A stretch of 64,000 bases of DNA from the NCBI GenBank assembly GCA_026395175.1, contig JAPLZF010000009.1, forward strand, positions 82,083-146,082, read 5' to 3'. The stretch's first letter is position 1. The number at the start of each line of letters is the position of its first letter. Below, one piece after another: positions 1,246 through 61,588 of this stretch. A model generated the notes under the pieces. It saw only the letters and a list, made by a program, of their open reading frames with translations. It was not told the DNA's origin and did no database searches. The position numbers and the translations under genes were made by a program. This DNA is from Candidatus Staskawiczbacteria bacterium. Its GTDB lineage: Bacteria; Patescibacteriota; Minisyncoccia; Minisyncoccales; Staskawiczbacteraceae.

Positions 1246-1967
1246 GCTCTTACTTTACAATCTTTAAAATATGGAGAAATTTCTTTAACAATTTCTTCTA
1301 AAAATTCTTTTTTGAACGGCTGGATTTTTTCAAAATCAGGGTCAATTGTTTTTTCTGCCCTGAACTTCTGCAAATAATATTTTACGTTTTTTTCTCCAAT
1401 CCATTTTGCAATTTTAACAAAATCTTCTTTTGTATGAATTGTATTCACCACGGTTGTGCGAAATTCAAAATCCAAGCTTCCTCGCTTTAAAAATTCAACA
1501 CTCTCTTTAATATCTTCCATTTTCACACCCTCGCCCATAATTTTTTCGTATACTCCAGCAGGTCCCTTTATATCCATGGCAACATAATCAATCAAACTTG
1601 CCCTAACCAAATCTTTTAACATTGCAGGATTTGATCCGTTTGTGTCTAATTTCACAGAATATCTCTCACCCTGAGCAAGGTCGAAGGGCAAATTTTTAAT
1701 TTTTTCTATAAAGCTCGGCAAATCTTTGTTTATTGTCGGCTCTCCTCCGCAAATTACAACACCGTCCAGCAATCCTTTTCTTTCCCTTAAAAAATCAAAA
1801 AATTGTTTTTCTGAAATTCTTGGTTGCTCTGCAATTTTTAACGGCAAAACCAATTCTGAAGAATAACACCAAGGACATCTAAAATTACATCCTGCCAAAA
1901 AAACAATGCAGGCAATTTTCCCCGGGTAATCAATTAAAGTTGTTTTTTGAAGTCCAGCTATAATCAT
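1242..1967 (-). CDS. nrdG: Anaerobic ribonucleoside-triphosphate reductase activating protein (radical SAM)
   Basis: CNFRCPWC radical-SAM cysteine motif, and it sits directly downstream of nrdD. Confidence 0.85.
   Translation of the reverse strand: MIIAGLQKTTLIDYPGKIACIVFLAGCNFRCPWCYSSELVLPLKIAEQPRISEKQFFDFLRERKGLLDGVVICGGEPTINKDLPSFIEKIKNLPFDLAQGERYSVKLDTNGSNPAMLKDLVRASLIDYVAMDIKGPAGVYEKIMGEGVKMEDIKESVEFLKRGSLDFEFRTTVVNTIHTKEDFVKIAKWIGEKNVKYYLQKFRAEKTIDPDFEKIQPFKKEFLEEIVKEISPYFKDCKVRA
1669..1688 (+). repeat. Dispersed repeat family C copy (ccctgagc-nnn-gtcgaaggg), in frame in nrdG and encoding PFDLAQG
   Basis: A near-identical 19-20 nt motif recurs at seven other loci. Confidence 0.6.
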
Positions 1968-12994: not shown

Positions 12995-13093
12995 AGTTTT
13001 AATCTTTATTTGTATTATATCATAGTTTTTAAACCTATACAAGGTGCCAATAAACCTATACATTTACCCTAATTTTCAGCCAAACAAAAACCG

Positions 13094-13113
13094 TCCTGAG
13101 CGAAGTCGAAGGG
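13094..13113 (+). repeat. Repeat family C copy (intergenic), part of a hairpin plus T-run downstream of the 13139-13828 gene
   Basis: tcctgagcgaagtcgaaggg followed by cggttttt. Confidence 0.5.
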
Positions 13114-13138
13114 CGGTTTTTGGCCTTAACTTTTTTGG

Positions 13139-17949: not shown

Positions 17950-18281
17950 CCAGACCGATTATATGCAACACGCCATCACAACCACTGTCCTTTGAATACT
18001 CTTGGGACTGTATCTTATTTGGGACATAAAAGTCCTCCAGCGCGCTACACCGATTCTTTTCTTTTTTAGAAACTTGCATAATGACGCTTGTTGAAGACTT
18101 GTCCGCAACAATTCTGCAATATACAATTTCAAGGCGCTACGCAAAAGCCTTAACCTCCACGTTCAGCTATCCTTAGATTTATTTTACATTTTTTTGTGAA
18201 AATAAAAAGACTCTCCTTTACTTTTCAAAGTTTCAGAGAGCCATAGATTCTGAGAGTCCAAAGTCCCGAAGGGCTTTAGAG

Positions 18282-18944
18282 TCAAGAATCGCAAGAGAGG
18301 ACCTGGCTGCCAGCAAACCACACGTCCGGATTCTCAACAGAGTAGGCGTGCACGCTCCAATAGCGATTGACAGAGTTCCAGTTCGCGATCACAGCCCAGA
18401 CATTGCCGTCTTTTCCTGAGATATGCATGACGTTCGCACGCCCATTAACGAGCAATTTGCCCTCTTCTCCATGTGCCTGTTTTTTAATCAGGCAAAATAG
18501 GTAAGCGAGGTAAGCTCTGGCAAGATCGCCTAACTCAGCGATGATTTGTGGGTCTTTGGAGTCCAACTCCAACCGATGAATCGCGAGCGTGGCGTCAGGA
18601 ACGTTTTCTTCCACAAGATTGAGGAATTGTTCCTTGAAGACGTCGTTAGTCCAACCGACGTTAGCTTCTGCGAGATGGTCTTTGGCGATAAACTTCTTCG
18701 CGCCATCGACCGACGCCGTCGCAATCTTCATGAGAATACCGCCAACACGCCCACCTTTGGCCAGAAACTGAAGGAAACGTCCAAAGAAATCATCCTGGCT
18801 GTCGTTCACGATTTGTTGAGCAGTGGCACAGGATACGTCCCAATCCATCTTCCCTGTTACCACCTCAACACTCATCTTGATGAATGCCTTGAAAAGCATC
18901 ATCAAAATTTCTCCCAATTGCTCAACACTCATCCTGTCCTTCAT
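18282..18944 (-). CDS. Hypothetical protein, member 2 of the GC-rich paralogous family (C-terminal ...NRYWSVHAYSVENPDVWFAGSQVL)
   Basis: GC-rich ORF with the conserved promoter-leader upstream. Its C-terminal motif NP..W..G.QVL and internal AELG segment are shared with gene 417-1055. Start uncertain (MKDR or MSVEQ); the track start uses TTG. Confidence 0.55.
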   Translation of the reverse strand: MKDRMSVEQLGEILMMLFKAFIKMSVEVVTGKMDWDVSCATAQQIVNDSQDDFFGRFLQFLAKGGRVGGILMKIATASVDGAKKFIAKDHLAEANVGWTNDVFKEQFLNLVEENVPDATLAIHRLELDSKDPQIIAELGDLARAYLAYLFCLIKKQAHGEEGKLLVNGRANVMHISGKDGNVWAVIANWNSVNRYWSVHAYSVENPDVWFAGSQVLSCDS

Positions 18945-19146
18945 TGTATGAACCTTTTTTGCGGCTACTGTTGCTCTCGCCACAAGGCAGAGCAAGCTCA
19001 ACGCATACTGTGGCAACCCTTTGCCACACCAGAAAATTATCTGTTTCTCAAATCTCTTTCTGGCATGGCAAAAACAAGTATTTTTAAATTATAAATGTGC
19101 CAATTTACTATTTATTAATTATACACCCTCTATCAATTATTGTCAA
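18945..19146 (-). promoter_or_regulatory. Conserved promoter-leader cassette L3: perfect TTGACA (19141-19146, rc), 17 nt, TATAAT (19118-19123, rc), plus the leader hairpin (about 19021-19073)
   Basis: caagtatttttaaattataaatgtgccaatttactatttattaattatacaccc aligns to 1170-1235. The hairpin sequence differs from L1 but pairing is preserved. Confidence 0.6.
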
Positions 19147-25025: not shown

Positions 25026-25109
25026 GCCGAGGTGGTGAAATTGGCAAACACGCCGGACTCAAAATCCGGTGCCCTTAAAAGCTTGAGGGTTCAAGTCCCT
25101 CCCTCGGCA
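25026..25109 (+). tRNA. tRNA-Leu (anticodon CAA), long variable arm, CCA not encoded
   Basis: Acceptor stem GCCGAGG/CCTCGGC, anticodon loop CTCAAAA, T arm GAGGGTTCAAGTCCCTC. Confidence 0.8.
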
Positions 25110-25137
25110 CACTTCACTTTGTTCAGTGTGAACAACT

Positions 25138-27729: not shown

Positions 27730-28294
27730 CATAACCCAAGTTGAATGCATTAATATTTAATTCTTTATATTTTTCCGGTACCATTTGGTCAATTGCTTTC
27801 AGCACAGATTCTTTTTTCATTGGAATTAAATTTTTGGCAACAGCATACCCCAAAGAATAAAGCGTGCAAACAATTTCATTCTGCAGTTTTTCTTTGCAGT
27901 CTTTTGAGGCTGGAATTATATAAGTTTCATTTTTAATCAAACCAAGCTGTTTTTTAATTTCCTCTGCCGTCAAAGACCCTAAAAACGGCAAAAAATAATC
28001 ATTAACCAAAAATTTTGTCTGCTTTCCAGATTTCTCTGTTTCGCGCAAGCCCTCCAGTATTTCCAAAGAAAGTATCAAGTCTGCCTTGCCGTTTGCAATC
28101 AAAGGAGAATTTACTTTTTTGCCAAACCTAATATGCGTTTCCACGCTTCCCCCTCTTTGCGAAAGTCCGTGCAATTCTGAAGACCTCACGTCATATCCTT
28201 CATTCATAGCTACCTGGTCAATCAAAATTAACAGCGTAATAACTCCCTGGCCGCCAACTCCATTAATTATCAAATTAAATATTTTATTGGTCAT
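27722..28294 (-). CDS. iorB: Indolepyruvate/2-oxoacid:ferredoxin oxidoreductase, beta (gamma-like) subunit
   Basis: NGVGGQGV motif; adjacent to iorA. Confidence 0.7.
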   Translation of the reverse strand: MTNKIFNLIINGVGGQGVITLLILIDQVAMNEGYDVRSSELHGLSQRGGSVETHIRFGKKVNSPLIANGKADLILSLEILEGLRETEKSGKQTKFLVNDYFLPFLGSLTAEEIKKQLGLIKNETYIIPASKDCKEKLQNEIVCTLYSLGYAVAKNLIPMKKESVLKAIDQMVPEKYKELNINAFNLGYGS

Positions 28295-29939
28295 GTTTTT
28301 CTGCTGTTTGTTTTTTTAATAATAGAGCGCAGATTTTTTTGCAAACAATCAAAGAAATTTCTTCTTTTTCTAAAAATTCTTTAACAACGTCTTCCAGTTC
28401 TTTTTGATTTATCGGGTCTAAAACTTTTATGTTTTTTACTCCGCAAGCCTTTGCAATTTCTTCAATTGAAAGTTCTGGGGCTTCTTCTCCCATCAAATTT
28501 TTTCCCATCCCGGGATTTGGCTGGTGCCCGGTCATTGCTGTAATTCTGTTATCCATTACAATCATCAAAGGGTTTGATTTGTTGTAAACAGCATTAACCA
28601 TTCCTGCAATTCCGGAATGAAAAAATGTGCCATCCCCCATAAAAGATATAACCTTTCGGCTTCGCTCAGGGCCTTCGGCCTTTAAAATGCCGTGGGCAAC
28701 ACCTATAGACGCGCCCATGCAAAACAAATAATCATACATTGAATGAGGAGGCAAAGCTCCAATCATGTTGCACCCAATATCTCCACCAAAAATTGTGCCT
28801 TCCGGGGCAATTCTTTTTATGGTTGGTAAAATATACCAATATGGGCAACCCTCACAAAGCCTTGCTGTTCTCTTTGGCAAATTCAAATTCTTTGTTTTAA
28901 ATTCGGCAAATTTCATTCCCACTACTTTTGACAAAGCGCCACAAACTTTTTCAGCGCTCAATTCTCCAATAATTGGCAAAACATTTTTGCCAAAAATTTC
29001 CATTTTTGCGTTTGCGTCTTTTGCCAACACAGCAATTTCTTTTTCAACATATCCTTCCAACTCCTCAACAACTAAAACTTTTTTTAATGGTTTTATAAAC
29101 TTTATAATTTTTTCTTTTGGTAAAGGATAAAAAGATCCAAGTTGCAAAACCGGCAAATCCAATTTCAATTCTTCCAAAGCCTCCATAACATGCAAACCTG
29201 CAACTCCCGAAGCTATTATTCCAACCTTCAAATTGTAGGACTTCGGGAGTCCTACAATTTTGTTGATTTTAGACTTTTCTGCATATGCCTGTATTTTTTT
29301 TATTTTTTCCAAAAGCTCTTTTTTCATTTCCAAGGTTCTTGGTGGCATTGTAGAATACTGATGCGGATTTTTGACGAAGTCACCCCGCGGAGTTTCAACG
29401 GAGTGGGGCTCATCCACCTCAACAACTGCCCGCTGGTGCGCGCATCTTGTAACAGTTCGTAAAATTACCGGCATATTAAATTTTTCAGAAATTTCAAAAC
29501 CAATTTTTGTAAAGTCGTAGCATTCCTGCGGATCTGCGGGCTCTAACATTGGAATATGGCCCAAATAAGCATACATTCTGGAATTTTGCTCAGATTGAGC
29601 CGAACTCCAGCAGGAAGGGTCGTCTGCCACCACAATCACCATTCCGCCTTTTGTGCCGGTGTAGGCCAATGGCAACAAAACGTCCGAGCACACATTAATT
29701 CCAAAGCTCTTCATATTCACCAAAACTTTCAAACCGGAAAAACTTGCTCCAATGGCAGATTCCAAAGCTGTTTTTTCGTTTGTAGCGTACTCTGCATAAA
29801 CCCCGTTTTCTTTGGCAATCTTGCCAAATTCGTCTCCAATTTCAGCCGATGGGCATCCGGGATATCCGGTAACATAAGAAACGCCCGATGCCAACGCCGC
29901 CCTAACTATTGCCTCATTCCCCAATAAAATTTTCTTCAT
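28284..29939 (-). CDS. iorA: Indolepyruvate:ferredoxin oxidoreductase alpha subunit (TPP-dependent)
   Basis: TPP-binding and CEGCPYW Fe-S motifs. Carries an in-frame 31-nt palindromic insert. Confidence 0.75.
   Translation of the reverse strand: MKKILLGNEAIVRAALASGVSYVTGYPGCPSAEIGDEFGKIAKENGVYAEYATNEKTALESAIGASFSGLKVLVNMKSFGINVCSDVLLPLAYTGTKGGMVIVVADDPSCWSSAQSEQNSRMYAYLGHIPMLEPADPQECYDFTKIGFEISEKFNMPVILRTVTRCAHQRAVVEVDEPHSVETPRGDFVKNPHQYSTMPPRTLEMKKELLEKIKKIQAYAEKSKINKIVGLPKSYNLKVGIIASGVAGLHVMEALEELKLDLPVLQLGSFYPLPKEKIIKFIKPLKKVLVVEELEGYVEKEIAVLAKDANAKMEIFGKNVLPIIGELSAEKVCGALSKVVGMKFAEFKTKNLNLPKRTARLCEGCPYWYILPTIKRIAPEGTIFGGDIGCNMIGALPPHSMYDYLFCMGASIGVAHGILKAEGPERSRKVISFMGDGTFFHSGIAGMVNAVYNKSNPLMIVMDNRITAMTGHQPNPGMGKNLMGEEAPELSIEEIAKACGVKNIKVLDPINQKELEDVVKEFLEKEEISLIVCKKICALLLKKQTAEKHDQ
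29230..29260. repeat. 31-nt palindromic element (family B), in frame inside iorA and encoding KIVGLPKSYNL
   Basis: aaattgtaggacttcgggagtcctacaattt, identical to 49235-49266. Confidence 0.7.
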
Positions 29940-35182: not shown

Positions 35183-36672
35183 TTTTTGTTTTCTAGTCTC
35201 GGAAATAAAATTTCTGACCTGCCCTGAGCGGAGTCGAAGGGTTTTTCAACTACTTTTTTTATTTTTTCTGAAGTTTGTGGCAAAAATGGTTCCAGCAAAA
35301 TTCCAATTTCTTTTATAGCAAAAAATAAGTCATTAATAACTTCCATTTTTTTTGCCTGCCCAGAGCTGGTCGAAGGGGTTTCCCAAAGTTTTTCTTCATT
35401 TATATATTTGTCGCAAAAACTTATTATTTCCCAAACAGAAATTAAAGCTTCGTTAAATTTAAAACTTTCAATGGCTAATTTATAATTTTTTTGCGTTTTT
35501 TCAATTTGTTTTTTTAATTCTAAATTTGAAAATTTATTCGAAATTCGAAATTCAAAATTCGAAATTTTGTCTGATATTCCCAATGTTCTTGCTACCAGAT
35601 TGCCAATACCGCCGGCTAAATCGGCGTTGTATCTTTGCTCAAATTTTTCGTATGTAAAATCACCATCCTCTGCAGAGACGATTTCTCTTAACAAATAATA
35701 TCTAACTGCATCAACTCCATATTTGTTTACCAGCTCAAAAGGGTCAACTACATTTCCCAAAGATTTTGACATTTTTTGCCCGCCAACATTTATAAATCCA
35801 TGAACAAAAATCTTTTTAGGGAGAGCAAGCTTAGCCGACAAAAGCATTGCTGGCCAAAATATGGTATGAAACTTCATTATATCTTTGCCTAAACAATGAA
35901 CGTCTGCTGGCCAATATTTTTTGAATTGCTCTGTTTCATTGTCATATCCAATAGCCGAAATATAATTTGGCAAAGCGTCGCACCAAACATACATTACCTG
36001 TTCTGGGTCTCCCGGAACTTCAAACCCCCAATATTTATCTTTTGTTCTGGAAAAGCTTACATCTTCCATACCTTGCTTCAACATTGATAAAGTTTCATTC
36101 TTTCTAGACTCGGGAATAATTTCTATTTCGCCACTCCTAATTTTTTCTTCCACTTCTTTAGTATATTTTGAAAGCCTAAAAAAATAATTTTCTTCTTCAA
36201 CAAATTCCAGCTCTTTCAAATGTATAGGACACTTGCCATCAACTATTTCTTTTTCTGTTTTAAATGCCTCGCATCCTGGGCAATAATAACCTTTATATTT
36301 TTTCTTATAAATATCGCCTGCTTCATCTAATTTTTTCCAAAGCTTTTCTACTGCTGGCTTGTGCTTTGTTTCATCTGTGGTTCTTATAAAGTCATTATTT
36401 GATATATTTAAAATTTTTGTCAGCTCTCTAAATTTGCCAGAAATTCCATCGGCAAAATCTTTTGGGTCACGGCCCGCTTCTCTCGCCACCCTTAAGGTTT
36501 TAATGCCGTGTTCATCTGTGCCGGTCAGGAAAAAAACATCTTCACCTAAACACTTATGATATCTTGCCAAAACATCTGCCTGAATTGCCTCCAACGCAAA
36601 GCCAATGTGCGGAGGCGCATTTGTGTAGGGAATGCTGGTGGTGATATAGAATTTTTTGTTTTTATTTGTCAT
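35179..36672 (-). CDS. metG: Methionyl-tRNA synthetase
   Basis: PYTNAPPHIGH and KMSKS motifs. Start moved to MTNKNKK. Carries in-frame repeat inserts from families A and C. Confidence 0.85.
   Translation of the reverse strand: MTNKNKKFYITTSIPYTNAPPHIGFALEAIQADVLARYHKCLGEDVFFLTGTDEHGIKTLRVAREAGRDPKDFADGISGKFRELTKILNISNNDFIRTTDETKHKPAVEKLWKKLDEAGDIYKKKYKGYYCPGCEAFKTEKEIVDGKCPIHLKELEFVEEENYFFRLSKYTKEVEEKIRSGEIEIIPESRKNETLSMLKQGMEDVSFSRTKDKYWGFEVPGDPEQVMYVWCDALPNYISAIGYDNETEQFKKYWPADVHCLGKDIMKFHTIFWPAMLLSAKLALPKKIFVHGFINVGGQKMSKSLGNVVDPFELVNKYGVDAVRYYLLREIVSAEDGDFTYEKFEQRYNADLAGGIGNLVARTLGISDKISNFEFRISNKFSNLELKKQIEKTQKNYKLAIESFKFNEALISVWEIISFCDKYINEEKLWETPSTSSGQAKKMEVINDLFFAIKEIGILLEPFLPQTSEKIKKVVEKPFDSAQGRSEILFPRLENKK
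35222..35241 (+). repeat. Repeat family C copy in the metG C-terminus (KPFDSAQGRS)
   Basis: ccctgagcggagtcgaaggg. Confidence 0.6.
35359..35377 (+). repeat. Repeat family C copy in metG (PSTSSGQ)
   Basis: cccagagctggtcgaaggg. Confidence 0.6.
35523..35568. repeat. Heptamer repeat family A array, in frame in metG (ISNFEFRISNKFSN)
   Basis: aatttgaaaatttattcgaaattcgaaattcaaaattcgaaatttt. Confidence 0.65.
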
Positions 36673-36706
36673 AATGTATAAATTATATAATCTTAACACT
36701 TTTTTT

Positions 36707-37180
36707 ATGATTCTGTTAGTCCATCTTTTATTTGGAACGGCAATCGGGTCTGCGGTAAACAACGTTTGGCTGGCTATTATTTTAGCCTTTATAAGCCATT
36801 ACCTTTTAGACCTCCTCCCCCATATTGAGTATAATATCCAAAATATAGAACAAAAACAATGGCACAAAGCCCTACCGGACATTTTAAGAGTAATTTTAGA
36901 TTTTTGTCTGGGAATTTTACTTATATTTATCTTATCTAAGAATAATCCTATTATTTATATTTGCGCCTTTTTTGCCTTACTGCCGGACGGCTTAACTGTT
37001 TTTAATACTCTTTTTCCAAACAAAATTTTAGAACCTCTCCAAAAATTTCACATAGAAAAAATCCATTTCCTAAAAGAAAACCCTTCGACAAGCTCAGGGC
37101 AAGAAAAAATCTCCACTTTCTGGAGAATTTCAACTCAAGTCGTAGTAATTATAATTTCTATAGTTTTATTTAGAATATAG
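36707..37180 (+). CDS. Membrane-bound metal-dependent hydrolase-like protein (DUF457/YdjM-like)
   Basis: LVHLLFGTAIG...SHYLLDLLPH pattern in a polytopic membrane protein; start moved to the internal ATG. Confidence 0.5.
   Translation: MILLVHLLFGTAIGSAVNNVWLAIILAFISHYLLDLLPHIEYNIQNIEQKQWHKALPDILRVILDFCLGILLIFILSKNNPIIYICAFFALLPDGLTVFNTLFPNKILEPLQKFHIEKIHFLKENPSTSSGQEKISTFWRISTQVVVIIISIVLFRI
37091..37109 (+). repeat. Repeat family C copy, in coding orientation (NPSTSSGQ)
   Basis: cccttcgacaagctcaggg. Confidence 0.6.
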
Positions 37181-38224: not shown

Positions 38225-39496
38225 TTAAATCTTTAATAATTGTCTTAATCTTTCGTTCTCCTTTTCTTCAAACGGACCAATAATGGCTAAATTAAGCTTT
38301 TCGGGCAAAAATATGTCTTCTGCAATTTTCTGGATGTCATCAACCGAAACCTCGTCAATTTTTTTAAACTTTTCTTCCGGAGTCAGAATATTTTTTTCCA
38401 ATAATTCCTGCACTGCGTAAAAAGATGCCTGGCTGTCTGAAGAATCCAAAGACAAAGATGTAATGCCCTTTAAATAATCTTTTGCCTTCTGCAATTCTTT
38501 TTGCGTGATCTTTTTATCTTTCATACTTTTATATTCCTGCAATATTAATTTTACAGATTTTTCCAAATTTTTGTGGTCAATTCCGGCCTGCGTTACCAAA
38601 TATCCGGTGTCGGTGGAGCTATCGGCTGAAGTATGAATTGAATATGCCAAACCGTTCCTTTCCCTTACTTTTATAAAAAGCCGAGAACTCATATTTCCTC
38701 CCAAAATTATAGACAACAAAGCTAAAGCATATTTTCTTTTATCAAACAAATCATAAGCCCTGACTCCCAAACAAAAATGCGTCTGGTCTGTCTTTTTGTG
38801 ATGCAATAAAACTTCAGGTTTTAACTGGCTTTCTTTTACTTTAATTTTTTGCCCAGTTTTGCTGTCCTTTGAATTTTTAAAATAATTTTTTATTTTTTCT
38901 TCCATTTTATCTGAATTCACAGCTCCCGAAACACAGACAATTATATTAGATGGAGAATAATGAGCGTTATAATAATCCAAAACCTTTTTCCTGTTAAAGC
39001 CCAAAATGTTTTCTTTCTCGCCTATAACTCGCCAGCCGGCAGGAGTGTCGCCGTATAAAAGTTTTTCAAAAAGTTCTCCAACGTAAGCCATCGGCGTATC
39101 CAAATACATGTTTACCTCTTCAACTATTACTCCTTTTTCTCTTTCCATCTCTTTTTCATCAAACTTAGAATTCAAAAATATATCGCATATCCAATCTAAA
39201 GCAATGTCAGAATGCAATTTATCAACTTTTGCCCAAAATCCGGTAATTTCTTTTGAAGTAAAAGCATTGTATTCTCCGCCAACCGAATCCAAGGTTTCTG
39301 AAATTTTCAAAGTATTCGGCCGTTTTTGAGTGCCTTTAAAAAACATATGCTCTAAAAAATGAGAAATCCCATTTATGTCTTTTGTCTCATATTTTGACCC
39401 TGTGCCAACCAAAATTAAAGCCGTGACAGAATTGGCGTTTTCCATCGGGATTGTGATAACCCTTAGTCCGTTGCTTAAAGTTGTTTTTTTATACAT
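38225..39496 (-). CDS. M16 family (insulinase-like) zinc peptidase
   Basis: HFLEHMFFKGT inverted zinc-binding motif HxxEH. Confidence 0.8.
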   Translation of the reverse strand: MYKKTTLSNGLRVITIPMENANSVTALILVGTGSKYETKDINGISHFLEHMFFKGTQKRPNTLKISETLDSVGGEYNAFTSKEITGFWAKVDKLHSDIALDWICDIFLNSKFDEKEMEREKGVIVEEVNMYLDTPMAYVGELFEKLLYGDTPAGWRVIGEKENILGFNRKKVLDYYNAHYSPSNIIVCVSGAVNSDKMEEKIKNYFKNSKDSKTGQKIKVKESQLKPEVLLHHKKTDQTHFCLGVRAYDLFDKRKYALALLSIILGGNMSSRLFIKVRERNGLAYSIHTSADSSTDTGYLVTQAGIDHKNLEKSVKLILQEYKSMKDKKITQKELQKAKDYLKGITSLSLDSSDSQASFYAVQELLEKNILTPEEKFKKIDEVSVDDIQKIAEDIFLPEKLNLAIIGPFEEKENERLRQLLKI

Positions 39497-40170
39497 AGTT
39501 GTAATCTTATTTTTATTATTTGCCCAACCATTTTTACACGGCTTATAAAGCCTTTGCAAAACCCGTATTTTTTTTCTTTAATTATTATTGAGAGCTTGGG
39601 CAATTTTACATATTTTACGAGCAACTTTTTATTTATGCAATAATGGTTTAACGCCAGCTCCACTGCAAATTTTTGAATAAATTTTTCCGGAATGTCTTCT
39701 AATATAGCCCGCTTAATTGCCCGCTCTCCTCCAATTGCCAACAAAGGATCAATTTTTACAACCAGTTTAGGAAACCCAAAAAACCTGTCTCTTATTCCAA
39801 CACACATATCAGCATTATCTTTTACCATTGGCTCCAAAAGCAAATAAATATGTTTTTGTGATAAACCAATCAAATCTGCGTCAAAGAAAACAATAATTTC
39901 AGCATTGGTTGCATTCAAGCCTTGTTTCATTGCGTTTCCCTTGCCTTTGTTTTCAGATAACTTCAAAACTTTAACTCCCAGGTTTTTTCCAATTTCTGCG
40001 GTTTTGTCAGTCGAGCCATCATCAACCAAAATTACCTCATCCAAATCTTTCGAGCTTAAAAGAACTTTCAAAACATTCCCGACATTTTTTTCTTCGTTAT
40101 ATGCCGGCACAATCGCCGCAATCCTTCGACGTGGCTCAGGACCTTCGGTTTTTTCAACAAAGTTTATCAT
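39475..40170 (-). CDS. Family 2 glycosyltransferase (dolichol-phosphate mannosyltransferase-like)
   Basis: IVPAYNEE ... VDDGSTD GT-A motifs. Confidence 0.75.
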   Translation of the reverse strand: MINFVEKTEGPEPRRRIAAIVPAYNEEKNVGNVLKVLLSSKDLDEVILVDDGSTDKTAEIGKNLGVKVLKLSENKGKGNAMKQGLNATNAEIIVFFDADLIGLSQKHIYLLLEPMVKDNADMCVGIRDRFFGFPKLVVKIDPLLAIGGERAIKRAILEDIPEKFIQKFAVELALNHYCINKKLLVKYVKLPKLSIIIKEKKYGFCKGFISRVKMVGQIIKIRLQLCIKKQL

Positions 40171-41470
40171 TTAAATAATCTATCAAATCCTTTATCTTTA
40201 TTCTCTCCTGTTTCATTGTGTCGCGGTCTCTCACGGTCACGTCGTCATTTTCCAAAGTATCAAAATCAATTGTCACGCAAAACGGAGTTCCAATTTCATC
40301 CTGGCTGTAATAACGTTTCCCAATATTTCCCCTGTCGTCAAAGGCTACATTAAACCCTGAGCCTATCGAAGGGTTCCTCAACTGGATGTACACTTCTTTT
40401 GCTTTTGCAACTAATTCAGGCTTGTTTTTTAAAAGCGGAAACACAGCCACCTTATATGGAGCCAAACTTGGTTTTAGCTTTAAAACAACTCTATCTTTTT
40501 CTTCTACATAAGAATCGCAAAGCACCGCCAAAACCGACCTATCCACTCCAAAAGTCGGTTCAATAACATGCGGATAAAATTTTTCGCCGGATTCTGCGTC
40601 CTCGTATGGCGGTTCCTCAAAATGATTTTTTAAATCAAAATCTGTTCTATAGGCCAAACCATACAACTCGCTTTTTTCAAAAGGAAAGTCATATTCAATA
40701 TCTATAGTTTTTTTGGAATAATGAGCCCTATTCTCTGGCTCGCATTCGCAGTCATGAATATGTTCTTTTTTTAAGCCAAGATCATTTACCGTCCAATCCC
40801 ACATTTCTTTTTGCCAATAATCAAATACTTTTTCCCAATCAGCATCTTTTTTAGGAACTGGAATAAAATATTCAATTTCCATTTGCTCAAATTCACGAGT
40901 TCTAAAAATAAAATTTCCTGGAGTAACTTCATTTCTGAAAGCTTTTCCTGTTTGGGCGATACCAAAAGGAATTTTCCTTCTTGTTGTATCCAAAACATTT
41001 TTAAAATCAACAAACATCGACTGCGCAGTTTCAGGACGAAAATACACGGTGCTTGCGCTGTCTTCGGTTACGCCCAAAAAAGTTTTTAGCATTAAATTAA
41101 ATTGTCTCGGTTCGCCCAATTTTCCCCCGCAGTCAGGGCATTTCTTTGAATTTACATGGTCAGCTCTAAATCTCCTTTTGCATTTTTCGCATTCAACCAA
41201 TGGGTCAGCAAACTCTTTCAAATGGCCTGACGAGGCCCAAACTTTTGGATTCATAATTAAAGCCGCATCAATTCCAACCATGTCATCTCTTTTATGCACA
41301 AAACGCTTCCACCAAATATTTTTTATATTATTTTTCAACTCAACTCCCAGGGGCCCATAGTCAAACGAGTTTGCCAAACCGCCATAAATTTCAGAGCCGG
41401 GGAATATAAAACCCCGTCGCTTGCACAAAGATACAATTTTTTCCATTGAATTATTTTCTTCTTTTTTCAT
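40154..41470 (-). CDS. glyQS: Glycyl-tRNA synthetase (dimeric alpha2 type)
   Basis: Class II motifs with a GlyRS-specific N-terminus. Confidence 0.85.
   Translation of the reverse strand: MKKEENNSMEKIVSLCKRRGFIFPGSEIYGGLANSFDYGPLGVELKNNIKNIWWKRFVHKRDDMVGIDAALIMNPKVWASSGHLKEFADPLVECEKCKRRFRADHVNSKKCPDCGGKLGEPRQFNLMLKTFLGVTEDSASTVYFRPETAQSMFVDFKNVLDTTRRKIPFGIAQTGKAFRNEVTPGNFIFRTREFEQMEIEYFIPVPKKDADWEKVFDYWQKEMWDWTVNDLGLKKEHIHDCECEPENRAHYSKKTIDIEYDFPFEKSELYGLAYRTDFDLKNHFEEPPYEDAESGEKFYPHVIEPTFGVDRSVLAVLCDSYVEEKDRVVLKLKPSLAPYKVAVFPLLKNKPELVAKAKEVYIQLRNPSIGSGFNVAFDDRGNIGKRYYSQDEIGTPFCVTIDFDTLENDDVTVRDRDTMKQERIKIKDLIDYLNDKLC
40365..40383 (+). repeat. Repeat family C copy in glyQS (NPSIGSGF)
   Basis: ccctgagcctatcgaaggg. 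Confidence 0.6.
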
Positions 41471-47676: not shown

Positions 47677-48258
47677 TTAATTTAGTTGTCTTAGTTCTGC
47701 TGTGCCAATTTCCTCTCTTTTTAAATAAAAATCTTTGTTTGGTATTCCTTTGACCGTGCAACTTAAAAAAAGAATTGGAAGCTCGTGGCTGATTATTAAA
47801 ATATTTTTACCTTTGTATTTTTTGTCTGTGTCTTTCAAAAAATCTACCATTCGTTTTTTAATCTCAATGTATGTTTCGCCGTTTTTCGGCCTTATCTTAA
47901 ACCTTCTCAAACCTCTTTCGCCAAAAAAAATACTCATCCCCATAAAAGGCAACCCGTTAAAATCTCCTGCCCCTTGCTCTCTCAGCCTTTTATCAATTTT
48001 TGGCTTTATATGCAAAATTTTTCCCACAATTTCAGCTGTCATTTTTGTTCTCAGCAACGGAGAACAAAAAATTAAATCAATGCTTCGACCCTGCTCAGCA
48101 CAGGTGTTTTTAAGCTTTTTGGCTGTTTCTTTTGCTTTCTGCCTGCCAATTTTTGTTAAAGGATTATAAAATTTTTCCGGCCAGCAGGATACAAGCTCTT
48201 TTACGTTTGAAATTGCCTGCCCGTGCCGCATTATATAATATTTGTTATTTAGCTTCAT
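47677..48258 (-). CDS. Histidine phosphatase (phosphoglycerate mutase-like) family protein
   Basis: IMRHGQAISN RHG catalytic motif. Confidence 0.7.
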   Translation of the reverse strand: MKLNNKYYIMRHGQAISNVKELVSCWPEKFYNPLTKIGRQKAKETAKKLKNTCAEQGRSIDLIFCSPLLRTKMTAEIVGKILHIKPKIDKRLREQGAGDFNGLPFMGMSIFFGERGLRRFKIRPKNGETYIEIKKRMVDFLKDTDKKYKGKNILIISHELPILFLSCTVKGIPNKDFYLKREEIGTAELRQLN

Positions 48259-49825
48259 TTCTTTTTAGTTCTTTAGGGGTTGATATTCCCATTAATTTCA
48301 GCGCATTCTCCAAAACAATTTTTGTTGCCAATATTAAAGACAAGCGGGCTTCTGTTAATTTTTTATCTTCAGTAACAACTCTGCATTTTTCATAAAACTT
48401 ATGGAATGAATCTGCCAGTTCAATTGCATAATTTGGCAGACGTTGCAGTTGATAATCATTTGCGCTGTCTCCAATAATTTCCGGAAATCTTATTAATTGT
48501 TTTATCAATTCTAATTCACTTTGCTCTTTCAACAAATCCAAATTATTTGTTTTTGCTTTAATTTTAGATTTTGCAAAAATGCTGTTTATTCTGGCATAAG
48601 CATATTGCACTTTAAAAACCGGGTTTTTGTCTGACTTTTCTTTTGCCAAGTCCATATCAAAATTAAAATGCGTGTTTAAAGACCTTTGCAAAAAGAAAAA
48701 ACGCGCAACATCCAGGCCAACCTCGTCAATTAATTCGTCAATGGTTACATAAATTCCTGTTCTTTTAGACATGCGCACTTCTTTGCCGTTTTCAAAAAGC
48801 TTTACCAATTGCAAAACAATTGCATCAACATTTTCTTTGTTATAACCCAACGCTTGGCAAGCAGCTTTCAACCTTGCCACATAGCCGTAATGGTCTGCTC
48901 CTAAAAATATTATTAATTTGTCAAAGCCTCGCTCAAATTTATTTCTTAAATAGGCAATGTCTGAGGCAAAATAGGTTTTAACCCCATCCTCTCTTATCAA
49001 AACCCTGTCTTTGTCGTCTCCTAGTTCAGATGATTTAAACCACAAAGCGCCTTCGCTTTCGTAAGCAAAACCCTTTTTTGTGAGTTCTGCGATTGTTTTG
49101 TCCACTACGCCATTTTTATACAAAGTTGTTTCAGAAAACCAGGTATCAAATTTAATGCCCATCCTTTTCACAGACGGCTTTATCATTTTTTCTAAAATTA
49201 TCTTTCCTGCCTTTTCACCAATTTCTTCAGCTTTAAAATTGTAGGACTTCGGGAGTCCTACAATTTCTTTTCTTAAATCCTCAATATACTTTCCGGAATA
49301 AACCGCTTCTTCGTCTCCAATTACTGAATGTCCCAGCTTTGTAATTTGAGCGCCAATATCATTTATGTAATATTCTCTTGAAACTTTATATCCGGCTTTT
49401 TCTAAAACCTTTGCCAAAACATCTCCACCAAATCCGCCTCTTCCATTGCCCAGTGTCAAAGGCCCCGTGGGATTTGCAGAAATAAACTCCACATTTATTT
49501 TTTGTTTTTTCCCAATATTTGAGCTCCCAAATTTTTCCTTTCCTTTTAAAACTTTCTGCACCTGCTCTTTTAAATATTTTTCTGAAAGATAAAAATTAAT
49601 AAACCCATTTACAACTTCTATTTTAGAAAATAATTTATTTTTTTGTTTTTCTATTTCTGTTTTTATCAGCTCTGCCGTTTCGCGAGGATTTTTATTTTCT
49701 TTTTTCGCCAAAATCAACGCAACGTTGCTTGAATAATCTGCATGGCTTGAAGTTTCAACAGAAAAGTTCAGGACTTCTCCTTTAATAACTTTCTCAATTA
49801 TTTTTTTGATTTCTTCTTTTATCAT
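48245..49825 (-). CDS. argS: Arginyl-tRNA synthetase
   Basis: Class I HIGH-like SANPTGPLTLG motif and DALR anticodon-binding domain. Carries the in-frame 31-nt palindrome. Confidence 0.85.
   Translation of the reverse strand: MIKEEIKKIIEKVIKGEVLNFSVETSSHADYSSNVALILAKKENKNPRETAELIKTEIEKQKNKLFSKIEVVNGFINFYLSEKYLKEQVQKVLKGKEKFGSSNIGKKQKINVEFISANPTGPLTLGNGRGGFGGDVLAKVLEKAGYKVSREYYINDIGAQITKLGHSVIGDEEAVYSGKYIEDLRKEIVGLPKSYNFKAEEIGEKAGKIILEKMIKPSVKRMGIKFDTWFSETTLYKNGVVDKTIAELTKKGFAYESEGALWFKSSELGDDKDRVLIREDGVKTYFASDIAYLRNKFERGFDKLIIFLGADHYGYVARLKAACQALGYNKENVDAIVLQLVKLFENGKEVRMSKRTGIYVTIDELIDEVGLDVARFFFLQRSLNTHFNFDMDLAKEKSDKNPVFKVQYAYARINSIFAKSKIKAKTNNLDLLKEQSELELIKQLIRFPEIIGDSANDYQLQRLPNYAIELADSFHKFYEKCRVVTEDKKLTEARLSLILATKIVLENALKLMGISTPKELKRNEAK
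49235..49266. repeat. 31-nt palindromic element (family B), in frame in argS and encoding EIVGLPKSYNF
   Basis: aaaattgtaggacttcgggagtcctacaattt. Confidence 0.7.
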
Positions 49826-50520
49826 TGGATAATAGTGCCTACAAATGGCTTGTTATTTAAGCAATCTTCAAGGCGGTCTAAATTTTTTCCGTTAATTATA
49901 ACAACTTTCAGCTTTAATTTTGAAGCCAGCTTTGAAGCCCTTGGATCAAACGGCATTGAAAGCCCGGGGTTCCATTTGTCTCCAACAATTCTTTCAAAAC
50001 TTTTCCAATCAATTTCTTTTAATGCTTTGGCATCGGGAAACTGATTTGGGTCTTTATCATAAACATAATCAATGTTTGAAAGATTTATTATGGTTTTTAC
50101 ATTATGATTTTTTGCAATTAGCACAGCGTCGTAGTCTGTTGACCAGCCGGGTTTCCAGCCGGCTCCCACAATAACATCTTTGTTGGTTTTTACTTTTATA
50201 TTTGGGTCGGTGATAACTTTTGGATAAGCATTACCAACAAACATTTGCTTTATAACTTCAGCATTAAGCCTTGTAATGTTAATTCCAATCCAATCTCGGT
50301 CTTTGCTTTGCCCGCCAAACTCCAAAAGAGCATTTTGATAATTCCTGGCAACTTTCCCTCCCCCAACTATAATAAAAAATTTAAATCCTGAGCCTGTCGA
50401 AGGGCCGTTTCCGATATATTTTTGAAGAGTATGCTTAAAACTTTTCAAAAATCCCAGGTCAATATTATCTGGAACCACCAACGACCCACCCAATGAAATT
50501 ATAATAGTTTCTTTATTCAT
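49822..50520 (-). CDS. pyrH: UMP kinase (amino-acid kinase family, archaeal-like)
   Basis: ISLGGS ... IVGGGK.AR amino-acid-kinase motifs. Contains a family C insert (NGPSTGSGFK). Confidence 0.6.
   Translation of the reverse strand: MNKETIIISLGGSLVVPDNIDLGFLKSFKHTLQKYIGNGPSTGSGFKFFIIVGGGKVARNYQNALLEFGGQSKDRDWIGINITRLNAEVIKQMFVGNAYPKVITDPNIKVKTNKDVIVGAGWKPGWSTDYDAVLIAKNHNVKTIINLSNIDYVYDKDPNQFPDAKALKEIDWKSFERIVGDKWNPGLSMPFDPRASKLASKLKLKVVIINGKNLDRLEDCLNNKPFVGTIIQ
50387..50404 (+). repeat. Repeat family C copy in pyrH
   Basis: cctgagcctgtcgaaggg. Confidence 0.6.
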
Positions 50521-51034: not shown

Positions 51035-51481
51035 ATGAAGATATTCAGTGAAAACAAAAAGGCGGGGTTTAACTATGAAATCCTAGAGAAGTTTGAAGCC
51101 GGGATGGTTTTGTTTGGCCAGGAAGTTAAATCAATAAAAACCGGGCACATCAATTTGTCCGGGTCTTATGTTGTTTTTAACAGGTCAGAGCCCTATTTAA
51201 CCGGCGTAAAAGTGCCTCCATACCAGCCAAACAACATTGGAGCCGACTATAATGAAGAAAGGCAAAGAAAACTTCTTTTAAACAAAAAAGAGATAGATTA
51301 TTTGGCGGGCAAGACCAAAACCAAGGGTTTTAGCTTAATACCCTTGAAAATTTATGAGAACAATGGTAGAATAAAACTCGAATTCGGGTTAGCCCGCGGA
51401 AAGAAGAAATTCGACAAAAAGGAGAAAATTAAAAAACGGGATGTCGACCGAGAGGTTAATCGCGAATTATCACGGGGATGA
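51035..51481 (+). CDS. smpB: SsrA-binding protein
   Basis: GFNYEILEKFEAGMVL..EVKS SmpB signature. Confidence 0.85.
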   Translation: MKIFSENKKAGFNYEILEKFEAGMVLFGQEVKSIKTGHINLSGSYVVFNRSEPYLTGVKVPPYQPNNIGADYNEERQRKLLLNKKEIDYLAGKTKTKGFSLIPLKIYENNGRIKLEFGLARGKKKFDKKEKIKKRDVDREVNRELSRG

Positions 51482-51827
51482 TTGTTTCGATGACTAGTTC
51501 TTTAAAACAAGGCAAGTTAAGCTTTCTCAGGGCTTATAAATCTTCTGGGAAAAAACATAATTGCTACTAATTTATTTAATAGACAACCAGCATTAGCTTT
51601 CGCTTAATGCGGCATCTCAACCATTGACTCCTAATAAATGGACCTGAGGTGTTATATTATTAGGATAGGAATTCTGAGTCCTTGGCAGATTTCCAAAATA
51701 AAAAGGATAAGATGTTAAAAATTTTGCTATTTCTTTATTTGACATCCTAAAAAACAGAACTAGCTAAACTTGTAGAATTGCTTTAGAAAACTTTTCAGAC
51801 GCGATTTCAACATCGCCATCTCCACCA
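51474..51827 (+). ncRNA. ssrA: tmRNA (SsrA); its 5' GGGGATG pairs with 3' CATCTCC-A-CCA; predicted tag ATNLFNRQPALAFA
   Basis: tRNA-like 3' end GACGCGATTTCAACATCGCCATCTCCACCA and 5' GGGGATGATTGTTTCGATGAC resemble E. coli tmRNA; the candidate tag reading frame ends in TAA; sits downstream of smpB. Confidence 0.75.
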
Positions 51828-60345: not shown

Positions 60346-61588
60346 TTTTCGAATTCAATGCGTCTCTGGCAATTTGGCGGTCATCCCATGGAATTTTTTT
60401 CCCGTTTGCTAAACACATTAAAGGCTCTGAACCTTTTCCGGTTATAATAACCACGTCACTCGGCTTTGCTATTTTTATTGCTTTTCCTATTGCTTCTTTT
60501 CTGTCTAAAATCTTTTCAGCCTTATCTCCTGCAGTTTCTGCAACTTGGTTTATAATTTCCATTGGGTCTTCATCGTAAGGGTCTTCGTTGGTGATTATAA
60601 TTTTATTGCAATATTTTTTTGCAATTTCTCCCAAAACAGGCCTTCTCCATTTGTCTCTGCCTCCTCCTGTTCCACCTAAAACGCAAATTAAATTTTTGCC
60701 TTCAAACGTTTTATACACTTTTTCTAAAGCATCTGGAGTAAATGCGAAATCAACAAAAACTTTAAATGGTTCAGAAACAACTTCTTCCATCCTGCCTGGG
60801 ATCCCTTTTGTCTTTCCCAGGGCTTTTCTGCAGACTTCTAAACTAATACCATAATTTTTCGCAACATTTATTGCGGCCAGAGCATTATAAATATTAAATG
60901 ATCCTAAAATATTAATATTAAATTTTTGTCCCTCCAGCTCAAAACTTGTGCCATTATTAAAACTTATATTTTTTGCATCCTGAACGCTAAAACTTATTAT
61001 TTTACGTGCTTTAATATCTAAAAAGTATCTTGAATTTTCATCATCTCTATTTATAACGTGGATGTTTCTTCCTGCCCGGAATAACTTTAATTTTTCGTTT
61101 CTGTAATTTTCAAAACCTCCGTGGCTTTCAATATGCTCTGGAGTTAAATTTATAAAAACAACTGCATCAAAATTTATAAACTTGTGCCTGAATTGCCTTA
61201 TTCCTTCTGAAGTAACTTCCAAAACAACATAATTGCACCCGGCCTTTTTTGCTTGGCTCAAAAGCTTTTGTATTACAAATCTTCCGGGCATTGTCATTTT
61301 GTATTTATTTTCCCATTCTTTGTCTGCAACTTTAAATCTGATAGAAGACACAGATGCAACTTTGTTTTCAGACCTGCCTTGAGGCATCTCGAAGGGTTCT
61401 TCTAAAATTCTTGTTATAAAATCCGTGGTTGTAGATTTTCCGCTGGTGCCGGTGACTCCAATAATTTTCATATTTTTAGAGTATCCTGGAAACCCAAAAA
61501 TTACAGCTCCCAAAAGCGCCCAACAAAAATGATAGAATCTCAATAAAAACTTCGGTATAATTTTTTTAACAAATTCTTTAAATGTCAT
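60341..61588 (-). CDS. Mur ligase family protein (MurE/MurT-like) with an N-terminal hydrophobic segment
   Basis: GVTGTSGKSTT P-loop, Mur ligase middle and C-terminal domains; contains a family C insert (EEPFEMPQGRS). Confidence 0.65.
   Translation of the reverse strand: MTFKEFVKKIIPKFLLRFYHFCWALLGAVIFGFPGYSKNMKIIGVTGTSGKSTTTDFITRILEEPFEMPQGRSENKVASVSSIRFKVADKEWENKYKMTMPGRFVIQKLLSQAKKAGCNYVVLEVTSEGIRQFRHKFINFDAVVFINLTPEHIESHGGFENYRNEKLKLFRAGRNIHVINRDDENSRYFLDIKARKIISFSVQDAKNISFNNGTSFELEGQKFNINILGSFNIYNALAAINVAKNYGISLEVCRKALGKTKGIPGRMEEVVSEPFKVFVDFAFTPDALEKVYKTFEGKNLICVLGGTGGGRDKWRRPVLGEIAKKYCNKIIITNEDPYDEDPMEIINQVAETAGDKAEKILDRKEAIGKAIKIAKPSDVVIITGKGSEPLMCLANGKKIPWDDRQIARDALNSKT
61377..61396 (+). 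repeat. Repeat family C copy in the Mur ligase gene
   Basis: ccttgaggcatctcgaaggg. Confidence 0.55.

Follow-up and report, generated by a model that had tools for sequence, protein, structure and literature searches.

A candidate mobile mini-hairpin repeat in housekeeping genes of a Candidatus Staskawiczbacteria genome

What places one and the same sequence of about 20 nt in the reading frames of unrelated housekeeping genes? The question is raised by a 64,000-nucleotide stretch of the genome of a Candidatus Staskawiczbacteria bacterium (assembly GCA_026395175.1, contig JAPLZF010000009.1, positions 82,083 to 146,082; the window in what follows), in which a repeat made of CCCTGAGC, a short spacer and GTCGAAGGG recurs in genes such as those of MetG, GlyQS and PyrH. 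A sequence-only reading of the window had listed eight copies, seven of them in genes and co-oriented with them, and had proposed a DNA-level element with a transcription-linked orientation bias. Our analysis indicates that the repeat is probably a very small, non-coding, DNA-level mini-hairpin element that looks mobile, is gained and lost, and resembles REP elements and small dispersed repeats (SDRs).

Copies of the repeat and their empty sites

The window has a G+C content of ~36%, is 90% coding and carries 86% of its coding sequence on the - strand. We searched it for CCCTGAGCNNNGTCGAAGGG, that is, the pattern CCCTGAGC-NNN-GTCGAAGGG, with up to 3 mismatches. The search returns 6 matches against 0.06 expected, a number reached by 0 shuffles, while the exact pattern with a spacer of 2-4 nt gives 3 matches against 0 expected. 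Half-site and fuzzy searches recovered further copies and brought the total to 11, 10 in genes and 1 intergenic, which matches the 90% coding fraction; the element thus shows no avoidance of genes. All eight copies listed in the sequence-only reading are present in a motif that stands far above chance, their peptides had been read correctly (PFDLAQG, PFDSAQG, PSTSSGQ twice, PSIGSGF, PSTGSGF and PFEMPQG), and the NrdG activase, MetG, GlyQS, PyrH and Mur ligase are confirmed as hosts. Three copies had been placed up to 10 nt away from their true spans (37081-37099, 40355-40373 and 50386-50404), the label DUF457 for the open reading frame (ORF) at 36656-37180 is not reproduced, this ORF having no Pfam match, and three more coding copies, in the opposite orientation, had been missed at 28652, 40122 and 48081.

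To place the copies in their evolutionary context, we aligned 120 homologues each of MetG, the NrdG activase and the Mur ligase at the protein and codon levels, and compared the window with the syntenic DNA of relatives (L001-L006 and L127-L128) and with ~0.93 Mb around ArgS from 80 metagenome contigs. The orthologue comparison that the sequence-only reading had suggested gives a uniform answer: all ten coding copies (10/10) are in-frame insertions relative to close orthologues, 9-24 nt long and modally 24 nt. The nearest relative, L001 (84% MetG identity), has 0 copies in 20.6 kb, as against six in the syntenic segment of the window, and over the 21-kb syntenic block in which the window has six copies L001-L006 have 0-1 each. 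One fixed pattern gives a window density of ~1 per 7 kb, as against ~1 per 40 kb over the 0.93 Mb of relatives; the window lineage has a ~six-fold copy density over its relatives, a lineage-specific burst. Filled alleles are scattered on trees, with at least 11 changes needed for the 15 filled MetG alleles, 6 for the 6 of the Mur ligase and 3 for the 3 of the NrdG activase, approximate counts obtained by parsimony on single-protein neighbour-joining trees. Gain and loss are frequent enough for close relatives to differ site by site, and the same loops are struck repeatedly.

Different versions of the repeat occupy the same site. The MetG site reads PSTSSGQA (2-nt spacer) or PSTPLRAG (3-nt spacer), the PyrH site reads PSTGSG, PSTGLRARR or PSTTLRVRQ, and a Nudix loop, empty in the window, reads PFDTAQGK or PSTSLRAS. 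Judging from these sequences, it would not be easy to derive one same-site version from another when spacer or register differs. The MetG copy of L127 holds a second copy, with a GGC/GCC stem, nested exactly in its middle (CCCTTCGACAAG[GGCTTCGACTGAGTTCAGCC...]CCTCAGGGCAAGC). Furthermore, of the five empty sites that can be read, four are A-tracts (ACC^AAAAAA, GAC^AAAAAAA, AATAAA^AAG and AAGAAA^AAT).

Seven of the coding copies are antisense to their hosts. In the NrdG-activase gene (1242-1967, -), the copy at 1669..1688 on the + strand, an exact CCCTGAGC-AAG-GTCGAAGGG, encodes PFDLAQG(E) and forms an 8-aa insert between KIKNL and (G)YSVKLDTNG; the insert occurs in only 3 of 120 homologues, is missing from ~80%-identical relatives and, in an AlphaFold model (mean pLDDT 82), is predicted to form a loop between helix 83-91 and strand 104-109. 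MetG carries two copies. The one near the C-terminus (35218..35241, +) is a 24-nt unit, CCTG-CCCTGAGC-GGA-GTCGAAGGG, exact and read as PFDSAQGR; it adds a net 18 nt at GAAAATAAA^AAG, is missing from six of six syntenic relatives, and its site is filled in 3 of 120 homologues only. The other, CCCAGAGC-TG-GTCGAAGGG (35359-35377), lies inside a 24-nt insert (35353..35377, +) read as PSTSSGQA at the WET^KK site, empty as ACC^AAAAAA and filled as ACC[CCTTCGACCAGCTCTGGGCAGGCA]AAAAAA, which is filled in 15 of 119 homologues.

The copy at 37081..37099 lies on the - strand (the + strand reads CCCTTCGAC-AA-GCTCAGGG, exact) and is antisense in the + strand ORF 36656-37180 (orf174), with the peptide PSTSSGQ; it is the only copy in a + strand gene and flips along with the gene, and it forms a 24-nt insert at GAC^AAAAAAATC that is missing from three orthologues. 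In GlyQS (40154-41470, -), CCCTGAGC-CT-ATCGAAGGG at 40355..40373 (+) is read as PSIGSG, adds a net 15 nt at AAGAAA^AATTTT and is missing from six of six orthologues. PyrH (49822-50520, -) contains TCCTGAGC-CT-GTCGAAGGG at 50386..50404 (+), read as PSTGSG, in the loop KYIGxK^RFFI; this loop is empty in ~22 of 33 orthologues, and in L136, L138 and L193 it is occupied by copies of the motif that differ in spacer and register. The Mur ligase gene (60341-61588, -) has a degenerate copy at 61377..61396 (+), CCTTGAGG-CAT-CTCGAAGGG, with three mismatches and ACCTG on its 5' side, in a region 73% identical over 52 nt to 35211-35262; its peptide, PFEMPQGR, is an 8-aa insert missing from 75%-identical relatives, and the site reads PFDSAQGR in the homologues P0323, P0352 and P0339.

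The remaining three coding copies, all on the - strand, are sense-oriented. The copy at 28652..28671 in a POR/TPP-enzyme gene (28284-29939, -), CCCTGAGC-GAA-GCCGAAAGG with two mismatches and the peptide GPERSRKV, contains GCGAAGC; its site is 9-12 nt longer than in four orthologues, and the target is not A-rich. At the N-terminus of a GT2 glycosyltransferase gene (39475-40170, -), the copy at 40122..40141, TCCTGAGC-CAC-GTCGAAGGA followed by TTGC, has two mismatches, an exact core and a TCC/GGA stem and is read as GPEPRRRI; the site is a coding-strand A-run, the extra N-terminal residues are missing from orthologues, and a copy of like shape (TCCTGAGC..GGATTGC) is sense-oriented in ArgS of L154 and L158. 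The copy at 48081..48100 in a histidine phosphatase gene (47677-48258, -), TGCTGAGC-AGG-GTCGAAGCA, has an exact 11-nt core and a complementary TGC/GCA stem and is read as CAEQGRSI. This 6-aa insert is shared with L131, degenerate in five relatives and missing from most of 36 orthologues; it is an older copy.

The sole intergenic copy (13086..13121, +) lies between two - strand genes and has one mismatch. Its core, TCCTGAGC-GAA-GTCGAAGGG (13094-13113), is the apex of a longer hairpin, AAAAACCG...CGGTTTTT, whose stem extends to 12 bp, and this is the only window copy with a strong predicted fold: the + strand RNA folds at -19.9 kcal/mol (z = -3.5), compared with z = -1.6 for the - strand, and both a G-T wobble and the GNA spacer are on the + strand. 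The hairpin is terminator-like, as the earlier description had it, and stands downstream of a gene; a simple scan for terminators at 13094 misses it because its loop exceeds 8 nt.

Other short inserts share these hosts. Unrelated GC-rich mini-hairpins are found in the PyrH loop (L130, L144, L148 and L140-142) and in the NrdG loop (P0152, P0186, P0192, P0198 and others); these loops accept such inserts generally. Among the inserts are CCCCACTTCGCCAAGGCTTCGCGGGG (PTSPRLRGAL), PSPSGFGVAR and PASPSQGG; one is nested, and many contain CTTCG. Housekeeping genes of the candidate phyla radiation (CPR) seem to be colonised by several mini-hairpin families. In addition, the window has four heptamer arrays of 4-5 tandem AATTCGA/TTCGAAA units. 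One (6500-6530) overlaps the 5' end of the ybeY ORF, and three, inside Pth (17292-17324), MetG (35536-35566) and PolX (53904-53936), are read in frame, as ISNKF in MetG, where homologues vary at the site (FSIFN, FLISN, IQISN); the arrays look like a second in-frame mini-insertion family. A 32-nt near-perfect palindrome, AAATTGTAGGACTTCGGGAGTCCTACAATTT, occurs twice, at 29230-29261 in the POR/TPP gene and at 49235-49266 in ArgS, where its in-frame translation is (L)PKSYNF and the alignment shows it as an insert that most orthologues lack; it is a third in-frame hairpin element.

Hairpin anatomy and taxonomic spread

The invariant part of the repeat is TTCGAC-N2-3-GCTCA, or TGAGC-N2-3-GTCGAA on the opposite strand, and the unit comprises a core of 19-20 nt, usually brought to 24 nt by an extension GGGCAGG/GGGCAAG. 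The element is a mini-hairpin with a conserved 13-14-nt loop, TGAGC-(GNA or YT)-GTCGAA, and a free 3-6-bp stem, here mostly CCC(T)/(A)GGG, since the closing stem covaries in two independent sequence sets. The first set comes from a scan of 185,579 species genomes (596 Gb) for the CCC/GGG-flanked form, which yielded at least 120 loci, and the second from a scan of viral contigs, likewise with at least 120 matches. Counts from the two scans are uninformative on enrichment (~140 chance matches are expected in 596 Gb), and we used internal features only, all of them determined among the matches listed. By these features the CCC/GGG-flanked genome matches are clearly non-random: the spacer is AA or AG in 81 of 133, TCC and TTC dominate the 3-nt class, and the 3' flanks fall into the types CGAACGG, CAGGC/CAAGC, TGACA/TGAGC and ACCGA. 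Cores that have no CCC/GGG flanks carry complementary 3-nt flanks in 54 of 76 cases against 0 in an offset control, with pairs such as GGC/GCC, TGG/CCA, TCC/GGA and TGC/GCA, and the viral-contig scan replicates the pairing (48 of 73 against 1 in the control). In a formal count over 107 sequences, 66% of cells are paired, a share that no shuffle out of 500 attains (44% after shuffling). The covariation score of 0.516 contrasts with 0.184 in shuffled sets and 0.06-0.17 in slid controls, and the stem can extend to 6 bp (TCRNNN...NNNYGA).

The spacer distinguishes the two strands. In the TGAGC-NNN-GTCGAA orientation, 3-nt spacers have the form GNA in 7 of 15 CPR copies, 27 of 46 genome copies and 35 of 49 viral copies, as against 0, 0 and 2 TNC spacers in the same three sets, again among the matches listed. 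This strand-specific spacer points to the CCCTGAGC...GTCGAAGGG strand as the folding strand. According to Hirao and co-workers, C(GNA)G triloops of the d(GCGAAGC) type are reportedly exceptionally stable DNA mini-hairpins. The copies with a 3-nt spacer likewise centre on GC-GNA-GY, the copy at 28652 and that of L158 contain GCGAAGC exactly, and GNA makes up 47-71% of the 3-nt spacers, on one strand only; unlike a repeat family, however, d(GCGAAGC) is a structural motif, and here it is a candidate fold only. A mismatch asymmetry in the outer stem (G-T against A-C) was also considered as a strand indicator and was dropped in favour of the GNA spacer, as it is confounded by the conserved composition of the 3' flank.

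The antisense orientation of the repeat is read in all three frames (PFDxAQG, PSTxSGQ/PSTxLRA and ALRQAQGK) and the sense orientation in two (LSxVEG and PExxRR). Among the matches listed, the loop sequence occurs in more than 20 phylum-level groups and in IMG/VR viral contigs. The groups include Bacteroidota, Patescibacteria (Saccharibacteria, Staskawicz-, Lipton- and Peregrinibacteria), Cyanobacteria and Planctomycetota; Alpha-, Beta- and Gammaproteobacteria, Spirochaetota, Actinomycetota, Verrucomicrobiota, Nitrospirota, Myxococcota and Clostridia; and NC10, Acidobacteriota, Chloroflexota, Armatimonadota, Desulfobacterota, Latescibacterota, Zixibacteria and several others. Outside the CPR, the copies so listed are mostly intergenic; copies there often sit at the apex of longer, locus-specific hairpins, and they are also arranged in tandem, at periods of 24, 35 and 54 nt, or clustered in alternating orientation (L014, L021, L050 and L101). 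The DNA-level nature claimed by the sequence-only reading is borne out by the several frames, both orientations, the intergenic copy, the non-coding copies elsewhere and the finding that 10 of 10 coding copies are inserts.

In Proteobacteria, the motif together with its flank (CCCTTCGACAAGCTCAGGGCGAACGG) reads PFDKLRANG in spurious upstream frames (L016, from Burkholderiales and upstream of GAPDH, L050, L110 and L101) and pairs with inverted partners such as GAGCCTGTCGAA. Such readings may account for odd peptides that recur among the hypothetical proteins of many phyla.

Orientation, spread and rival explanations

With the three added copies, the seven-of-seven co-orientation of the sequence-only reading becomes 7 antisense to 3 sense in the window (one-sided binomial p = 0.17). 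In the 0.93 Mb of relatives, 17 copies by the fixed pattern are antisense, 4 are sense and 2 intergenic. Independent host sites in the window and these relatives number ~15 antisense against 4-6 sense, with a one-sided p = 0.01-0.04 against a null of 50% and 0.07-0.20 against a null of 60%, the antisense share to be expected given the TGA present in one of three sense frames. The coding strand is also richer in A-runs, by 3.9x for runs of at least 6 A and by 2.6x for runs of at least 5 A; together with the A-tract empty sites, this asymmetry means that a fixed insertion polarity relative to A-runs predicts the same ratio without transcription. The ~3:1 antisense excess finds its simplest reading as a by-product, for which A-run target polarity, TGA in one sense frame or selection against the structured strand in mRNA are candidates.

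The orientation bias is real but modest, and A-run asymmetry or TGA explains it as well as transcription does. A mechanistic coupling to transcription, through insertion into, or retention on, one strand of transcribed DNA, would fit the co-orientation of the seven coding copies of the original list, among them the copy in a + strand gene, the site counts tested against 50% over 1 Mb, and the observation that the GNA-loop strand is usually kept off mRNA. We nevertheless judge it unlikely, in view of the three sense copies in the window, the loss of significance against the 60% expectation, and a bias that equals the A-run strand asymmetry. Furthermore, replication and transcription directions are confounded, with 86% of the coding sequence on one strand, and the copy at 37081, which follows its gene, is the single one that separates them. 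Of the transcription-linked bias that had been claimed, the bias stands in a modest and non-absolute form, a link to transcription appears unlikely, and we regard the bias, with moderate confidence, as a by-product rather than transcription-coupled.

The repeat probably spreads by copy-and-paste: new copies appear as short insertions, and the ones that survive are only those that keep the frame, bring no stop codon and fall in a tolerant surface loop. In a 90%-coding genome, such limits on survival mean that copies appear as extra peptides of 3-8 residues (PFDxAQGR, PSTxSGQA, LRQAQGK) in housekeeping enzymes. The GNA spacer suggests that the active species would be the CCCTGAGC...GTCGAAGGG strand in single-stranded form, probably as DNA, and the sites suggest that insertion would favour A-tracts and the apices of existing hairpins. 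The repeat could be mobilised in trans by an HUH/Y1-type enzyme from another part of the genome, or instead by a host replication or repair process.

Several observations weigh against a mobile element. A Pfam scan of 60 of the 68 window ORFs found no transposase, RAYT, reverse transcriptase or Y1 enzyme, and across 120 loci among the matches listed no shared neighbouring gene family stands out beside the motif, the families that recur being only common housekeeping ones such as ABC ATPase, FtsX, CheB and GAPDH. No consistent target-site duplication is present at the five DNA-aligned sites, a possible AAGAAAA repeat being seen only around the orf174 copy, and no consistent terminal inverted repeat is present at the DNA-aligned sites. 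The inserts vary in length from +9 to +24 nt and have fuzzy edges. Their patchy presence could reflect allele exchange between strains by recombination, and the trees behind the parsimony counts, each built from a single protein by neighbour joining, have limited resolution. The sense copy of the GT2 gene lies in a coding-strand A-run, contrary to a strict A-run polarity. Finally, nearest-neighbour RNA and DNA energy models, applied to the copies and to consensus 19-20-mers, assign the coding copies z ~0, with no significant stability; standard models leave GNA loops and tandem G-A pairs unscored, and because of the z ~0 obtained for the coding copies the structural case rests on covariation and GNA loops.

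Could a host process spread the repeat with no element-specific enzyme? By template switching in A/T-tracts or at hairpin apices during replication or repair, a nascent strand would move to an A-run-flanked copy elsewhere, copy ~20-24 nt and return, slippage between the flanking A-runs would delete copies precisely, and the other GC-rich mini-inserts and the heptamer arrays would be covered too. This explanation, which we hold to be possible though on balance improbable, agrees with the four A-tracts among the five readable empty sites, with an orientation ratio (~15:4-6) that matches the A-run asymmetry (2.6:1 for at least 5 A, 3.9:1 for at least 6), with variable insert lengths and no target-site duplication, and with several unrelated GC-rich hairpin families in the same PyrH and NrdG loops; the scanned window ORFs contain no transposase, the matches listed show no associated gene family, and a cross-phylum distribution fits a universal host activity. 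However, template switching leaves unexplained why the loop is conserved to the base across phyla while the stem drifts and why the GNA spacer is strand-specific, the six-fold lineage-specific burst is hard to fit, the POR copy lies in a target that is not A-rich, and the polarity of the GT2 copy is wrong for its A-run.

The same loop and spacer could instead mark a functional nucleic-acid signal under selection, such as a hairpin serving as the recognition site of a conserved protein of host or phage in replication, recombination, RNA processing or termination, or a DNA-uptake-type tag in competence-dependent CPR, with coding copies tolerated or useful. Eleven fixed loop bases across phyla and viral contigs with a covarying stem are typical of a recognition hairpin, the preference for a GNA spacer is strand-specific, the hairpin of the intergenic copy is strong, terminator-like and placed downstream of a gene, and some copies persist at one site in distant relatives (the Nudix loop and the histidine phosphatase). 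Against such a signal, which appears unlikely to us, the copies are insertions missing from the nearest relatives at every tested site, so that no site needs one, their density varies ~six-fold among close relatives, ~1 copy per 6 kb with a variable spacer is unlike uptake sequences, no Rfam family covers the motif, and no stable fold is predicted for the coding copies. A protein motif reached by convergence, or an artefact of assembly or sequencing, is scarcely credible: the inserts do encode small, polar, loop-like peptides, and the genomes are metagenome-assembled, but independent NCBI, JGI, ENA and Logan assemblies share the inserts at orthologous sites, always in frame, and a protein motif is ruled out by the three frames, the two orientations, the intergenic copies and the non-coding clusters in other phyla.

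We return to the mini-hairpin repeat that looks mobile. In its broadest form, which we consider doubtful, the TGAGC-(GNA/YT)-GTCGAA loop in any stem would define a ~20-24-nt single-stranded DNA mini-hairpin family shared by all bacteria and carried by phages, the smallest known self-propagating elements, moved by universal host replication or repair or by a very widespread enzyme; if this were true, the surface loops of essential CPR enzymes would be continually remodelled, a source of protein-length variation. The window also encodes PolX (53408-55132, -), a family-X DNA polymerase with a PHP domain (HHH_8, DNA_pol_B_thumb and PHP), and this gap-filling polymerase is a conceivable player in short templated insertions.

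If the narrower reading as a mobile-looking repeat is right, very small mobile repeats would extend from one cyanobacterial group to bacteria generally, would have a precise, searchable signature in the conserved loop, free stem and GNA spacer, and could live mainly inside essential genes of ultra-small CPR genomes. Longer loops and strain-level indel polymorphism in aminoacyl-tRNA synthetases, PyrH, NrdG and the Mur ligase would follow, the recurring PFDxAQGK, PSTSSGQA and LRQAQGK of metagenomic proteins and spurious ORFs would be accounted for, and the inserts could mislead alignments, phylogenies and domain boundaries. Filled and empty sites in close relatives make the mechanism of movement directly testable in population metagenomes.

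The window has other features apart from the repeat. Two N6/N4 DNA methyltransferase genes (10160-11266 and 61999-62826) lie in its lowest-GC stretches (8000-12000, 29-33% G+C, and 62000-64000, 28.6% G+C), which may be restriction-modification islands. A 48-nt intergenic repeat (92% identity, 1137-1184 and 60269-60316) stands just downstream of the nrdG-activase and Mur ligase genes, and a 43-nt AT-rich repeat (79% identity) is found at 1203-1245 and 19104-19146; both could be terminator or promoter modules used in common, or a small RNA. A direct repeat of 118 nt (84% identity, 17838-17955 and 18284-18401) falls in a region whose ORFs, at 17.8-18.4 kb, have no Pfam match, and a 56-nt repeat (75% identity, 48-103 and 17967-18022) ties this region to the start of the window. 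The smpB gene (51035-51481) is directly followed by the tmRNA gene (51474-51827; Rfam 95.8 bits), and a tRNA-Leu(CAA) is encoded at 25026-25110.

Comparison with known small repeats

Searches with standard resources did not return the repeat. At gathering thresholds, Rfam has no family at the motif sites of the window, only tmRNA and tRNA-Leu passing; at E up to 1, eight motif-rich loci again give no family at motif sites and only four weak sub-gathering matches, whose models are those of a microRNA, of an Aggregatibacter sRNA and of a snoRNA from trypanosomatids. Literature searches by DNA and peptide strings found no description of the motif and primer coincidences only, which is not proof of novelty. 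Resemblances to several known RNA elements, namely the 16S rRNA 5' end (GCTCAGGRCGAACG), the tmRNA 5' end (TTCGAC), the T and D arms of tRNA, the hammerhead core and domain V of group II introns, were set aside, as the repeat's conserved blocks do not match these elements in order or spacing and its 3' flanks are too varied (CAGGC, TGACA, ACCGA). DNA uptake sequences (DUS/USS) have a fixed core, occur at ~1 per kb and arise by substitution in place; the variable 2-3 nt spacer, the low density (~1 per 6 kb, and 1 per 40 kb in relatives) and the origin by insertion rule them out. A MITE, a miniature transposable element with inverted repeats (~50-500 bp, derived from an insertion sequence), is excluded by the ~20 nt size, with no inverted termini, no target-site duplication and no insertion sequence in the window.

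Two kinds of element share the intragenic life of the repeat. The GC clusters, double-hairpin elements and 'byp' elements of fungal mitochondria are short GC-rich hairpins that spread in AT-rich genomes, coding regions included; their setting is organellar, their length is 30-55 nt or more, and ribosomes bypass some of them. The window element is likewise a short GC-rich hairpin in an AT-rich genome, also inside coding regions, but it is unrelated in sequence, and its inserts keep the frame, contain no stop and are presumably translated. The Rickettsia palindromic elements (RPEs) described by Ogata and co-workers in 2000 are said to be selfish palindromic repeats lying in frame in unrelated genes of a small AT-rich genome, reportedly translated as extra loop segments that are missing from orthologues, 100-150 bp long and found in Rickettsia only. 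All ten coding copies in the window behave in the same way, lying in frame in unrelated protein genes and missing from orthologues; the element differs in being five times shorter (19-24 nt), unrelated in sequence and taxonomically unrestricted.

A further comparison is with REP and BIME elements and with the REPINs mobilised by RAYT transposases (Di Nocera et al. 2013, PMC3733652; Bertels and Rainey 2011, PMC3116915); REPs are occasionally found inside ORFs and translated (PMC3733652). The likeness lies in the short GC-rich stem-loops and in the tandem or alternate intergenic clusters of other phyla (L014, L050 and L101). In contrast, a REP is a 20-40-nt imperfect palindrome with a conserved stem, whereas here the loop is conserved and a 3-6-bp stem varies, in a much weaker hairpin of 19-24 nt. 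No consistent GTAG/CTAC or CGTC/GACG flanks the 11 window copies, CGTC being incidental at 13094 and 40122, and this missing tag, together with the conservation of loop and not stem, rules out a classical REP. Moreover, REPs form mostly extragenic clusters or inverted pairs and are species-specific, whereas 10 of the 11 window copies are intragenic singletons and one loop sequence extends across phyla; there is no RAYT among the 60 of 68 window ORFs scanned with Pfam.

The closest match in behaviour, as far as a comparison by description suggests, is with the SDRs of Nostoc. Elhai and co-workers reportedly described, in 2008, SDR1-8 of Nostoc and related cyanobacteria as repeats of 21-27 nt that form hairpins with compensatory changes, nest in themselves, are present or absent between relatives and associate with tandem heptamers, and that are said to be confined to one cyanobacterial subgroup. 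We know of no enzyme that mobilises them. The window element is alike in size class (19-24 nt), in a hairpin with stem covariation, in the empty sites of relatives, in the nested copy of L127 and in the heptamers, namely the AATTCGA arrays of the window, one of them in MetG, and the GTGACGA heptamers in which a copy of L041 is embedded. In contrast to the Nostoc repeats, which are also cited in PMC4390886 and PMC3116915, its loop sequence spans more than 20 phylum-level groups and viral contigs among the matches listed, and most window copies lie in frame inside essential genes. What sets the element apart from known ones is its extreme smallness and predominantly intragenic life in essential genes, its conserved loop with a free stem and a GNA spacer, and the occurrence of one loop sequence across bacterial phyla and viral contigs.

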